A stretch of DNA of 64,000 nt from Okamejei kenojei (lineage: Eukaryota), in the NCBI GenBank assembly GCA_035221665.1, contig CM069151.1, positions 33,914,001 to 33,978,000 on the forward strand, in the 5' to 3' direction. This document shows, piece by piece, positions 17,330 to 46,596 of the stretch. Position numbers and translations under genes: made by a program. A model generated the notes under the pieces. It did not search any database, was not told where the DNA came from, and worked only from the letters and a program-made list of their open reading frames with translations. Positions within the stretch are counted from its first letter, which is position 1. Each line of letters opens with the position of its first letter.

Positions 17330-17502
17330 CAGAAACAGTGCTCCACCTGATCCACCATTGTGTGTGCTAATGAATATTCTAAATGCTGCAGCCAAGGTTC
17401 CGTTGATAATGTTCAGATGCAGTACAGTCTCCCATGGGAAGATGAATGCATCTGAAAGAGCAGTATGAATTTTCTCAGAAAAATAAAAGAATGGCAGGGG
17501 AT

Positions 17503-18335
17503 GTAATATAGATAAATGTGAGGTTATCCACTTTGGCGGCAAAAACAAGGGGGCAGATTATTATCTCAATGGGGTTAGGTTAGGTAAGGGGGAGGTGCAG
17601 CGAGACCTGGGCATCCTTGTGCACCGGTCACTGAAAGTTGGCTTACAGGTACAGCAGGCAGTGAAGAAAGCTAATGGAATGTTGGCCTTCATAACAAGAG
17701 GATTTCAGTATAGGAGTAAAGAGGTTCTTCTGCAGTTGTATAGGGCTCTGGTGAGACCACATCTGGAGTATTGTGTACAGTTTTGGTCTCCTAATTTGAG
17801 GAAGGATATCCTTGTGATTGAGGCAGTGCAGCGTAGGTTCACGAGATTGATCCCTGGGATGGCGGGACTGTCATATGAGGAAAGATTGAAAAGACTAGAC
17901 TTGTATTCACTGGAGTTTGGAAGGATGAGGGGGGACCTTATAGAAATATATACAATTATTAAAGGACTGGACAAGCTAGATACAGGAAAAATGCTCCCAA
18001 TGTTGGGGCGAGTCCAGAACCAGGGGCCACAGTCTCCTGAAGTCTTAGAATAAAGGGGAGGTCATTTAAGACTGAGGTGAGAAAAAACTTTTTCACGCAG
18101 AGAGTTGTGAATTTATGGAATTCCCTGCCACAGAGGGCAGTGGAGGTCAAGTCATTGGATGGATTTAAGAGAGAGTTCGATAGAGCTCTAGGGGCTAGTG
18201 AAGTCAAGGGATATGGGGAGAAGGCAAGCACGGGTTATTGATAGGGGACGATCAGCCATGATCACAATAAATGGCGGTGCTGGCTCGAAGGGCCGAATGG
18301 CCTCCTCCTGCACCTATTTTCTATGTTTCTATGTT
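17503..18335 (+). mobile_element. Young 5'-truncated CR1 LINE
   Basis: ORF 17595-18053 with QRDLG, LYRALVRPHLEYCVQFWSP and RGDLIE motifs; closely similar to the 3598-5797 element; TTCTATGTTTCTATGTT tail. Confidence 0.9.
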
Positions 18336-31599: not shown

Positions 31600-32340
31600 C
31601 ACCCGCTGGGTTTGCAATGGATTTGGGGAGGTTTGAAGCCATCTTGTCAGGAGGATATGAGATTAAATGTAGGTTTGGAAGGTAGAGAACGGGAGGGAAA
31701 TAGACTTGGAAAGATGTAGATGGATTGGATGTTGCCAATGAAGTTTGATCCAGAAAGGTGGGGTAATGCATTTGGAGCGGGGAAGAGAATACCCAATAAA
31801 CAGGAGAAAATTGAGAAGTATTGCTGCAGATACATCAAAGTAGTGGTTATAAAGCCATATGGGATTCTTTTATTAACTAAGACCAAATCTAAGAGCAGGG
31901 AGGTGATGCCAAAACTGTATGCAACATTAGCTAGACCACAACCTGAATGCTGCATACAGTTCTGGCCACCACATTTACAAGAAGGAGCTGCTTGTACTGG
32001 AGAGGGTACAGAGGAGATTTGAAGTAGTTGCAAGGACTGGGTAATTTTTGCTATGAAATAAAATTGAACATGCAATGGTTGATTTATTTACAGCAGAGAC
32101 GACTGGAGAGGTCTTGAGTGTGGTTTATAAAAGAGAGTTCATAGGCAGAGCATATTTTCCTTGGTGATGAGATTTAAAAACCAGGGATAAAGATTGAATT
32201 TCATCGATAAAAAAGATTAAAAGCAGTATAAAATATATATTTTTACTGGGGTTGGTAAATATCTTGTTGCACTGCCTAGGCAGTTGATGAGTTGTAAGCT
32301 GCAGTTTTATGGACCCAGGCTAGTAAATGGGATTATAGAC
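31600..32340 (+). mobile_element. Old CR1 LINE fragment
   Basis: KSREVMPKLYATLARPQPECCIQFWPP (ORF 31720-32022). Confidence 0.65.
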
Positions 32341-43303: not shown

Positions 43304-43504
43304 GTGCTGGGTCAGGAGATGTTGGCGTGGTCATTGTTGATCCCCAGGGACGGCGGGATACGGTGGAGGTGATTCTGGAGGATAAAGGAGACAATGTTCT
43401 CCGCTGCACATACAGACCTCTGCTTGAAGGTCCTCACACCGTCCATGTTACTTTTGCTGGAACACCAATACCCAAAAGCCCCTTCACTGTGAACATCTCT
43501 GAAG
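43304..43504 (+). CDS. FLNC: Filamin-C exon 8
   Basis: CCTCAG|; [33 protein letters not shown]; G|GTAAGG; 201 nt, ends phase 1. Confidence 0.94.
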
Positions 43505-45482
43505 GTAAGGTCCACACACTACATGTGGGCTCTTTGTGTAAGAAGCCTTTGCCTTTCATTCATCCCCTATCCTCTACTCTTTCTCTCCCTAAGAGACGAG
43601 CAAAGGGTGACATATGGGGTAAGAAACCAAAGGAGAGGTTAAGAGATGGGGATGGATTGAAGATAACATAATGCAGGGAGAGTGAAGGAGGGTGAATGTT
43701 TGGGAACGGGGGGAGTGAGAATGATGCTCTGAGGTGAGGCAGGGAGAGTGAGTTTTTGTTGGAGGGGGTTTGTATCCTGGGCATGATGGAGTTTATGAAT
43801 TGTAGGATTTGTGAAAGTAGCGAGAAATCAGGAGCACAGGTGGGCTGTGAGGGAGGATGGGAGCAATTGAAGGCTGACGCTTTGAAAACTGTAATTGGAT
43901 TTGATCCTTGTATTAATGTCAGAAATACCATTAATTGTGTATTCATTATTTCTCTTTTGCGCAAAGATCATCTTTTGAATGGATCGTGTGGGTCTACTCA
44001 ACAACTCTCACAAGCTGTCTGTATATGCACTTGTGTGTTTAAAAAAAAAACCAAAAAAAAACCCCAAAACCTTCATTTCTAAAGCCCCCTTCATAACGCT
44101 GGGTTGCTCAAATGTTTTGCAACGAGTGAAGTCACTATTTCAAAAAGAGTCATGGTCGCCAATTGTGCACATCATAACTAATATCTTTTGTATATGACGC
44201 TGAGGGAGTTAAAATATCAACCAGAATACCTGTTGAGAGCACTGGTTTTCTAACAGTGCTGTCAAATATTTTATATTCTCGGGAATGAGGGTGGCTTCTA
44301 GTATGGAACCTGAAGTTATTATATGACTGGGAATAGGCAGTGTTGTTATCCTGGGCAATGACTCTTCAGTTCAATAATGTTCCATTGGTGATCCGATCCT
44401 GTGGTATCAGTTTTGTCTCTATGGTTAGACCCTAATTGCATGATTCTTCAGCACTGTTACCAAGCCAAATGATTTAAGATCTAGTATTCTGGGGAGGAAT
44501 CTTGCTTCACTATCCATACACATTCAGTTTATAAGGTGTTAATTTCCTAGAATAATTGAGTCATGTCAACATTCATTAAATGATTACGGAGGTGGTGGGG
44601 ACTGGAGTTAAGAATTAATTACTTGTGCCCGGCTGGAGATTTGGCCAAACAGACGTGAAAATGCTTCCATGTCAATTGACTAGCTTCATTTCCAGACATT
44701 ATCTATTAAGCACTTGGCATTTGGGCAAGGTTGAGGACTGCAGAATGAGAGAGCATATGTTTTTATTCTCCAAGAGTTGACCAGTTAACTTGGACTGTTG
44801 TCTTGTCCGATGAAGCCTGCCAAGAACAGCCAACAAATTACTTTAGTGATGAACAGATGCATCTCATTGGGAAGCTGTTATCAATTTACTCGTGTATATT
44901 AAGGAAAATAAAACCGCCTTTGTTTTGCGGAATAGCTTGTCTTTGTGGGCTTTGGCAAGATAGAAGAATCTGACAATCTGGTCGGAGTGGTTGATCTTGC
45001 TCTCTCAAGCTCTCATTTTAAAATTAAACCTTTGCAGATGCTCCCCTGGTTGTGGGGGGACACAAGATTAAGAAAAAGTGATGGTCCTGAAAGTTAGAAA
45101 TGGCTAGTGCGTAGTTGTTGAATTAGCATCCGAAAGGCTGTTTAATAAGGAAAGTTAGGTTTGGGCTGTTTCGCATGGGACAATAGTGAAGCTGCAAGAA
45201 TGCTTGGACCGTGGCTACCTGGAGCTGGGTCCATTGTGTTGGTGGACATTTGGAGGTTGAGGCCATGGTGGTGATTTGAGAGCTAGGGCTGTGCAGGTGT
45301 TGCAGTAAAACTGGGATTGGGTGGCATTTGGACCACTCTGAGAATGGGACTGTTTTGCGGATTTGTCAGCTTGGAGGGAGCTCCATGTTGCCACATCCCA
45401 CTGTACTGCAGGAGAGCCTGGATTTTGCCATTCACACCTTTTAACCTCTCCTTCTCTTCCTCTGTGCTTGGACTGACCTCAG

Positions 45483-45608
45483 GATCCTCCCCTCTGGCCC
45501 AGGCTGCTACACCAGCTCCAATTATGATCGTTCCTCAGTCCATCCACACCCCGCCGGCAGACAAGGCGAAGAAAGCGCCGCCCCCTCCTCCCAAACCCAA
45601 ACGAGCAC
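45483..45608 (+). CDS. FLNC: Putative alternative proline-rich cassette exon of FLNC between exons 8 and 9
   Basis: CT-rich tract then CTCAG|; 126 nt, phase 1 to 1; in frame reads GSSPLAQAATPAPIMIVPQSIHTPPADKAKKAPPPPPKPKRA; donor AC|GTTAGT. Confidence 0.65.
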
Positions 45609-46458
45609 GTTAGTATTGGCCTGGACTGAGGGGCTGCCTCTGCTTGTGTCTGTCCAAGGGGACGCTGGTTGGGCTTGTCTGTATGCGTGGTCGTGATATC
45701 TGTAAACACCGTGTCTGTCCAAGTGGCTGCTTGGGGGATGGTGGTTTTGCTTGCTCTGTGCATGAGGGTACTGGCTCCGAGGCCAGTTCAGGCCCTGGAT
45801 GTCACTGGCTCCAAGTCAGTGCAAGTCCTCTGAGGGTAGAGGGTGGTTAGTGCTGCCTGTTCCTGGTCATTACTAACTTGGTCATCAGCTGTTGTGCTGT
45901 GGTTCTAGGTGGGCACATTGGCTGCCGTGTTCTGCTGAATGGCTCTGCTCCTGCCAGGCCTTGAGTGGAATGGGTTGTAGATTACTGGTTAACTTTGGGT
46001 ATACTTTCCATAATGACTTTTCCTCCCACTGTTTATGGTTGCTCTTTTTGTTTGATGGAGACGAGACGTGATTAAAATCTTGCTCGGTTTGTGCTTTCCT
46101 TTTGCGGACAGGTAGGTGATTTGTCATCTGTACGTGGAGAGGTTGGGCTCTCTCTCTCTCTCTCTCTTTTTTATCCATCACGATGACAATCCTTGCTGAC
46201 TAGTATTACCAGTGTTCTGGGTACTGAGTGGGTGTCTTGATATCCCTCTGAGATTAGTGTGTGTTGTCTGCGGGACGGGATTTGGAGCGCACACGGCTGG
46301 TTTATTCGCTTGCTGAGCCAGCAGGTGGTTTGATTCCTCGTGTATCTGGAATGCTGGTAGATGTGGTTACTGCGATGTGACTGTGGACTGTAGGCTCTGG
46401 GTGGGCATTTTGTGCATTTGATGGGTTGACATTAACCTGACTCGTGTGTTTCTTGCAG

Positions 46459-46596
46459 CATGCAATCCCAATGCGTGTCGAGCCTCGGGGAGAGGCCTGC
46501 AGCCCAAAGGGGTGCGAGTCAAGGAAGTGACCGACTTCAAAGTCTTCACCAAAGGAGCTGGCACGGGGGAACTGAAGGTTGTCATCAAAGGACCCA
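46459..46596 (+). CDS. FLNC: Filamin-C exon 9
   Basis: TTGCAG|; [29 protein letters not shown]; |GTAAGT; 138 nt. Confidence 0.94.

Follow-up and report, generated by a model that had tools for sequence, protein, structure and literature searches.

A proline-rich cassette exon in FLNC intron 8, found in predicted isoforms across jawed vertebrates, as a likely switchable SH3-docking linker between Ig repeats 2 and 3

We found a 126-nt cassette exon in the filamin C gene (FLNC) of the ray Okamejei kenojei, within the 64,000-nt stretch of genomic DNA that was analysed (the window), and it is almost certainly both real and alternative. The cassette recurs in predicted isoforms across jawed vertebrates. 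Its 42 residues are predicted to make up a disordered linker separating Ig repeats 2 and 3, which on balance is likely to act as a switchable SH3-docking site.

The cassette (45483-45608) has AG and GT borders, a stop-free frame and phase 1 on both sides, and the coordinates, phases and open frame given in the preliminary description were all confirmed on the sequence. Since eight exons precede it in the tblastn exon map, the host intron is intron 8. The features on which the analysis draws are as follows, with the slash marking an exon end.

43304..43504, plus strand: FLNC exon 8 (end of Ig repeat 2), phase-1 donor G/GT; spliced alignment to a relative's protein, contigs of 4/4 runs
45440..45482, plus strand: likely branch point TTTAAC, a pyrimidine tract of ~25 nt and the CAG acceptor; sequence, acceptor used in run X1
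45480-45482, plus strand: CAG acceptor of the cassette; sequence
45483..45608, plus strand: cassette exon, 126 nt, adding 42 aa between Ig2 and Ig3; open frame, splice scores, contig joint, homologous isoforms
45533..45556, plus strand: a conserved block, PQSxxTPP, whose Thr-Pro is nearly invariant; P 78/78, Q 74/78, T 73/78, P 76/78 and P 75/78 copies
45578..45604, plus strand: PPPPPKPKR, which fits PxxxPK(P), PxxPx+ and PxPxPK and misses the first Pro of PPxxxPKP; motif counts, consensus from PMC3810769
45609..45614, plus strand: weak donor GTTAGT (C/GTTAGT), score 3.3; matches the junction of predicted isoform P0135, absent from reads
45759..45764, plus strand: TGCATG, 3' of the cassette, an RBFOX-type element; also in 19% of dinucleotide shuffles
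45872..45877, plus strand: ACTAAC, 3' of the cassette, a QKI-type element; 3.5% of shuffles
46459..46596, plus strand: FLNC exon 9 (start of Ig repeat 3); spliced alignment, skip joint in 4/4 runs

Inclusion of the cassette changes the junction from E-A-C to E-G-SSPLAQAATPAPIMIVPQSIHTPPADKAKKAPPPPPKPKRA-P-C, and the resulting linker reads G-SSPL...KRA-P. An in-frame addition of 42 aa had been proposed; the net gain is right, but the junction Ala is also replaced by Gly...Pro. Splice matrices were derived from 18 further junctions in the same gene (those of exons 1-21, leaving out the two around exon 11). Intron 8 offers 84 AG..GT candidates that measure 60-300 nt and are open and in frame, and of these the cassette had the top summed splice-site score (9.9 vs 3.8 for the next). 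Its acceptor is middling (outscored by 14/18) and its donor is outscored by 17 of the 18 constitutive donors; GTTAGT is the sole open in-frame donor for this acceptor within 300 nt. The exon-like composition described earlier was also upheld: the GC content of 0.619 is matched or exceeded by none of 259 overlapping 126-nt intronic segments, and the CpG count (n = 7; observed/expected 0.70, vs 0.29 and 0.39 in the flanking intron) by three of them. Within reach of our searches, both the DNA and the peptide of the cassette are single-copy in the genome, the three peptide matches elsewhere all having E values of 0.58 or worse. Two repeats were seen nearby. A 26-nt inverted repeat, 85% complementary (43630-43655 and 45428-45453), has its second arm across the likely branch point and tract; it might hide the acceptor, or it might be a purine/pyrimidine match that arose by chance. 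Close 3' of the donor lies a GT-rich direct repeat of 21 nt (45646-45666 and 45711-45731), a possible splicing element.

Transcript evidence came from contigs of 4 of the 24 listed public runs, whose RNA status is a guess, none being recorded as RNA. The skip joint 43504-46459 (exon 8 to exon 9) is present in all four. The two cassette junctions named in the preliminary description fared differently: joint 43504-45483 (GT..AG, exon 8 to cassette) was recovered in one run (X1, labelled 'RNA? (probably DNA)'), in a contig that ends at 45549, and joint 45608-46459 (cassette to exon 9) in none of the four. No contig of these runs covers 45550-45608; the records were filtered, and hence this gap is uninformative. 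The cassette-to-exon 9 junction is present in the predicted isoforms of relatives. Because the inclusion-joint contig in X1 has a depth of 184, compared with 564-625 for flanking exonic and 3-6 for intronic contigs, these data suggest inclusion of very roughly one third in that run, contig depth being a poor measure.

We further compared the cassette with RefSeq and UniRef proteins, and found it in predicted FLNC isoforms of chimaera, sharks, rays, bichir, sturgeons, teleosts, lungfish, amphibians and squamates. Its presence in predicted fish isoforms, as anticipated, is borne out by the first six of these groups, whereas the idea that it was kept in fishes alone is contradicted by the last three. 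The peptide search turned up a Heptranchias RefSeq protein carrying the insert, and the closest named matches were ray and shark proteins, which places the window in a cartilaginous fish. In these predicted isoforms of non-mammalian vertebrates, known from automatic annotation only (e.g., XP_067833806.1 of Heptranchias, XP_072922819.1 of Hemitrygon X2 and XP_062839468.1 of Anolis X1), the same exon occurs at the same position, measures 41-45 aa in nearly all and is accompanied by skip isoforms; inclusion and skip forms are paired within one species in a ray, in sharks and in lizards. Because it occurs in predicted isoforms from chimaera to squamates, the cassette is, as judged from sequence comparison, ancient and already auto-annotated, its copies being predicted models and not curated proteins.

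The wider search returned 504 proteins, of which the best 120 were listed. For the linker count, 17 of 182 proteins were dropped for want of flanking anchors, leaving 165, among which the linker is at least 35 aa long in 110 (77 distinct), the one-residue skip linker in 53 and intermediate in two. Together with the ray's own, the distinct linkers gave 78 copies, grouped by source names (teleosts by elimination) into chimaera (1), elasmobranch type (10), bichir, sturgeon and paddlefish (3), teleosts (44), lungfish (1), caecilian and salamanders (3), frogs (7) and squamates (9). These copies are related and not independent, given that 44 are teleost, and nine squamate misses of a motif may equal one event. 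Linker length is 42-43 residues in 88 of the 110. When P0135, from a close relative, was compared with 13 bony-vertebrate and chimaera proteins, the last 31 cassette residues were 52-74% identical and the first 12 were 0-33% identical, compared with 47-78% for hinge 1 and 70-89% for Ig2/Ig3; the cassette is conserved no better than hinge 1. TPPK is found in 42 of the 44 teleost copies, and the Thr-Pro of the PQSxxTPP block is a possible proline-directed kinase site. As to an invertebrate origin, the cassette profile matched 1 of 150 representatives, a snake fragment, and no invertebrate; a protein atlas search with the cassette gave no usable match.

Other inserts were observed at this site. 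The distant filamin P0185 has its own long low-complexity insert after residue 460, directly behind Ig2 and without a cassette-profile match; the Ig2-Ig3 site may be tolerant of repeated inserts. Cyprinid flnca proteins (P0119, P0339, P0344 and P0345) carry a proline/lysine insert of 18-19 aa at the same Ig2-Ig3 junction, which is not clearly alignable to the long cassette; PxxxPK is kept in this short zebrafish-type exon in Danio and not in Rhinichthys.

An AlphaFold2 model of the Heptranchias homologue P0002 (a 554-aa fragment with a 40-sequence alignment; pTM 0.30, the truncated CH domain also being low) gave pLDDT <50 at residues 270-310, a span that coincides exactly with the cassette; two folded Ig repeats precede it and three follow. 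The solved filamin A chain 4M9P, which we take to be a compact Ig3-5 unit, aligns to P0002 from residue 312, and the cassette peptide had no Pfam match. The cassette is predicted to be an unfolded, hinge-like (H1/H2) linker between Ig2 and Ig3, and the disordered hinge envisaged in the preliminary description agrees with this shark model. We also considered whether the hydrophobic IMIVPQ stretch docks in cis, adding a beta strand to an adjacent Ig domain; the P0002 model shows no such docking.

We then focused on the proline motif. PxxxPK is the best-kept motif of the cassette (76/78 copies, including the ray's, vs 30% of residue shuffles). PPxxxPKP is found in 62/78 copies vs 3% of residue shuffles, its first Pro lacking in all 10 elasmobranch-type copies, the ray's included, and PxxPx+ (PxxPx[RK], class II SH3) in 69/78, including the ray's, with 0/9 squamates and 51% of shuffles. 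The ray copy also fits +xxPxxP. In five squamate copies the sequence is PPPTLPKP, as it is in the crystallised XIRP2 peptide, and squamates have L or M at exactly the residue left free by the nebulette consensus. That SH3 consensus is PPXXXPKP, with PXXXPK as the minimal form; most ligand contacts come from Pro and Lys and none from the preceding Leu, and the Xin peptide KKKPQLPPKP, which has the minimal motif only, did not bind nebulette SH3 (PMC3810769). Because the ray copy misses the full PPXXXPKP, the cassette is only proposed to act like a nebulin SH3 ligand. The genome contains the SH3 exon of nebulin along with two close relatives of it (82% and 77%); SH3 matches in the genome number at least 103, and proline-rich motifs suit many SH3 domains. 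Docking to SH3 or WW domains had been suggested; the SH3 part stands as a candidate site, PxxPx[RK] being present, but a WW group I ligand was rejected, with PPxY absent from the ray copy and from all 77 homologues. SH3 docking is, somewhat probably, the main job of the cassette. The nebulin/nebulette/LASP family would be the likeliest single partner, and that a nebulin-family SH3 domain is the actual partner is a tentative proposal.

In the mechanism that we propose, the first 12 variable residues would serve as a spacer and the P-x-x-x-P-K-P-basic end would lie in the SH3 groove. At Z-discs or repair sites, where Xin and XIRP2 employ the same motif, filamin C that includes the cassette would have its actin-binding end anchored to nebulin or nebulette through their SH3 tail, and the Thr-Pro, ten residues upstream of the SH3 motif, could tune docking by phosphorylation.

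Several other explanations were weighed against this mechanism. A chance pseudo-exon or splicing noise would suit the weak donor and the 3' junction seen in 0/4 runs, but it is already largely refuted and scarcely credible, given conservation in the predicted isoforms of eight vertebrate groups, the best rank among 84 candidates and an acceptor joint at about one third of the flanking contig depth in run X1. Docking to the SH3 domain of another adaptor, either CAP/ponsin (SORBS1) and relatives or a CD2AP/CIN85-type protein, is a sub-case that competes with the nebulin family and seems doubtful to us. The ray copy fits PxxPx+, +xxPxxP and PxPxPK, and PxPxP[RK], which we take to be the CD2AP/CIN85-type SH3 motif, is found in 22/22 chimaera, elasmobranch, lungfish and amphibian copies, but in only 1/44 teleost, 0/3 basal ray-fin and 0/9 squamate copies, the squamates also having PxxPx+ in 0/9. 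CAP (SORBS1, ponsin) is tabulated in the accessible text of PMC7216277 as a binder of FLNC repeat 2, which adjoins the cassette, but R2 is present even without the cassette. The linker might instead have no SH3 partner and work as a hinge, mechanical or regulatory: an extended spacer by which the actin-binding end is uncoupled from the rod, its conserved residues being kept as a kinase or protease site. Calpain sensitivity is given as a feature of filamin hinges in the accessible text of the same review (PMC7216277). Predicted disorder, conservation akin to that of the alternatively spliced hinge 1, the uniform length (42-43 in 88/110 linkers), the near-invariant Thr-Pro with TPPK in 42/44 teleosts, and the shorter, unrelated-looking inserts that zebrafish flnca and mouse have at this site are all consistent with such a hinge. 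However, a pure spacer needs neither a free first third with fixed last two thirds nor PxxxPK in 76/78 copies, and we regard this explanation as unlikely.

The loss of the cassette in mammals that had been inferred earlier clashes with a published mouse Flnc exon. In the available portions of PMC10770608, 'exon 8a', at chr6:29,441,974-29,442,036 of mm10, is a 63-nt, in-frame, optional exon between exons 8 and 9, reportedly conserved across mammals, whose inclusion is ~10% in wild-type mouse muscle (gastrocnemius is the tissue named in the preprint) and <1% in a myotonic dystrophy (DM1) model, and whose junction peptide was found in 5/5 wild-type and 0/5 DM1 samples. Its tail [K/R]VAPP, taken from the junction peptide only, occurs verbatim in seven frog copies and as [KR]V[AP]PP in 22/78. 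Because this tail equals the frog K-V-A-P-P just before the PKP core, exon 8a would be a truncated orthologue; alternatively, a loose alignment with the last part of the shark exon is conceivable, as is the absence of any relationship. We consider homology between mouse exon 8a and the cassette more probable than not. The contrary explanation, in which exon 8a is independent and the long exon was truly lost towards mammals, and perhaps birds, is less probable but deserves weight: exon 8a is half as long (63 vs 126 nt) with five residues visible in the accessible text, and it has a Pro end, vs a Thr end in 67/78 copies including all squamates. Moreover, the long cassette was found in no mammal, bird, turtle or crocodile among the best 120 of 504 matches, nor among 12 further ones, and five bird sequences have the skip form. 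However, this absence rests on cluster representatives only, in a set without mammalian FLNC, and exon 8a shares the intron and phase, is in frame and muscle-expressed, has a tail seen verbatim in frogs and is reportedly conserved across mammals (PMC10770608, available portions). Under homology, mouse exon 8a would be a shrunken descendant of the cassette, as would the short flnca exon of zebrafish. A broader joint reading, which as a whole is speculative and improbable, holds that ancestral jawed vertebrates had a splicing-controlled third FLNC hinge that bound nebulin or nebulette SH3 directly and linked filamin C to thin-filament ends without Xin; that mammals kept the front of the exon (8a, to K-V-A-P-P), with the Thr-Pro block retained and the SH3 site lost; and that what is left is a DM1-sensitive coding exon, unannotated although the gene is a major one in cardiomyopathy. 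Three literature hits were discarded, as 'FLNC' in PMC6105124 is an unrelated abbreviation and 'exon 8a' in two other papers belongs to other genes.

Because of the weak donor, the RBFOX- and QKI-type elements and the mouse data, we infer that inclusion may be muscle-regulated, through this donor and downstream RBFOX/QKI/MBNL-type elements. ACTAAC occurs in the first 300 nt of 0/18 other introns, and the two elements occur jointly in 0.8% of shuffles, the motifs having been chosen after the fact. YGCY 3' of the cassette (n = 9) is above all 18 control introns, but 27% of shuffles reach 9, and enrichment of MBNL sites was dropped, the excess vanishing against shuffles.

When exons 8 and 9 were used as queries, a single further filamin gene emerged from the genome, on contig C16 (G000:C16:55412667-55414612), and no third paralogue was seen among the best-scored candidates. 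Intron 8 of this other gene has no cassette-profile match, FLNB-named proteins among the matches have the skip linker, and the cassette was found in FLNC only. Elsewhere in the locus, open frames at 17487-18050 (upstream of FLNC) and 31720-32019 (intron 1) presumably are LINE reverse transcriptase fragments, which they resemble. The hinge-1 exon (32 aa) lies just past the window (L002:3861-3956), and a ray isoform has an optional 8-aa segment near residue 1679. The repeat-20 insert (81-82 aa), the usual fixed mark of FLNC, is absent from several predicted lizard and sturgeon isoforms (P0169, P0176, P0173, P0180, P0177, P0157, P0156, P0166 and P0009); as of 2002, its splicing was unreported according to the accessible text of PMC2199218.

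Papers on chicken cgABP260 reportedly describe a proline-rich insert. In the accessible text of the filamin C literature, only hinge 1, hinge 2 and the repeat-20 insert appear (PMC7216277, PMC2199218, PMC3207142, PMC8002584), and the review speaks of two hinges and one known splice choice (PMC7216277). In a search that left most subscription journals out of reach, we found no description of the long exon's function, conservation or motif, in keeping with the earlier statement that no functional description was known. The conservation depth of the cassette, its nebulin-type motif and its possible truncation in mammals are, as far as that search reached, unreported. A third, optional filamin C hinge, conserved between chimaeras and lizards, would give the actin-binding end a further protein contact that can be tested, and bears on the open question of nebulin SH3 ligands in muscle, of which few are established (PMC3810769). 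It also offers evolutionary context for mouse exon 8a, an as yet unexplained exon whose inclusion is lost in a model of myotonic dystrophy, and flags zebrafish and frog filaminopathy models as differing from mammals. If binding fails, the cassette is an ordinary conserved exon already listed by annotation pipelines.

Three known systems resemble the cassette. As far as the accessible text of PMC10770608 goes, mouse exon 8a shares its intron, frame and phase, with a junction ending Pro-CNPNACR as in the ray, and has minor inclusion in muscle, but it measures 63 and not 126 nt, its visible tail is VAPP and not PKPKRAP, and no motif or function is proposed for it there. Filamin hinge 1 (repeats 15/16) is likewise an alternatively spliced non-Ig rod linker of similar conservation, which, in the accessible text, is removed during myogenesis and common to FLNA and FLNB (PMC2199218, PMC7216277); unlike hinge 1, the cassette lies between repeats 2 and 3, is found in FLNC only and is proline- and lysine-rich. 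Finally, the Xin and XIRP2 ligands share the PxxxPK(P) core, squamate copies agreeing with the crystallised XIRP2 peptide over its first eight residues, and belong to the same Z-disc and remodelling compartment as filamin C. Unlike in Xin and XIRP2, the motif of the cassette sits in an optional exon of filamin C, and the ray copy is without the first Pro of the full consensus.
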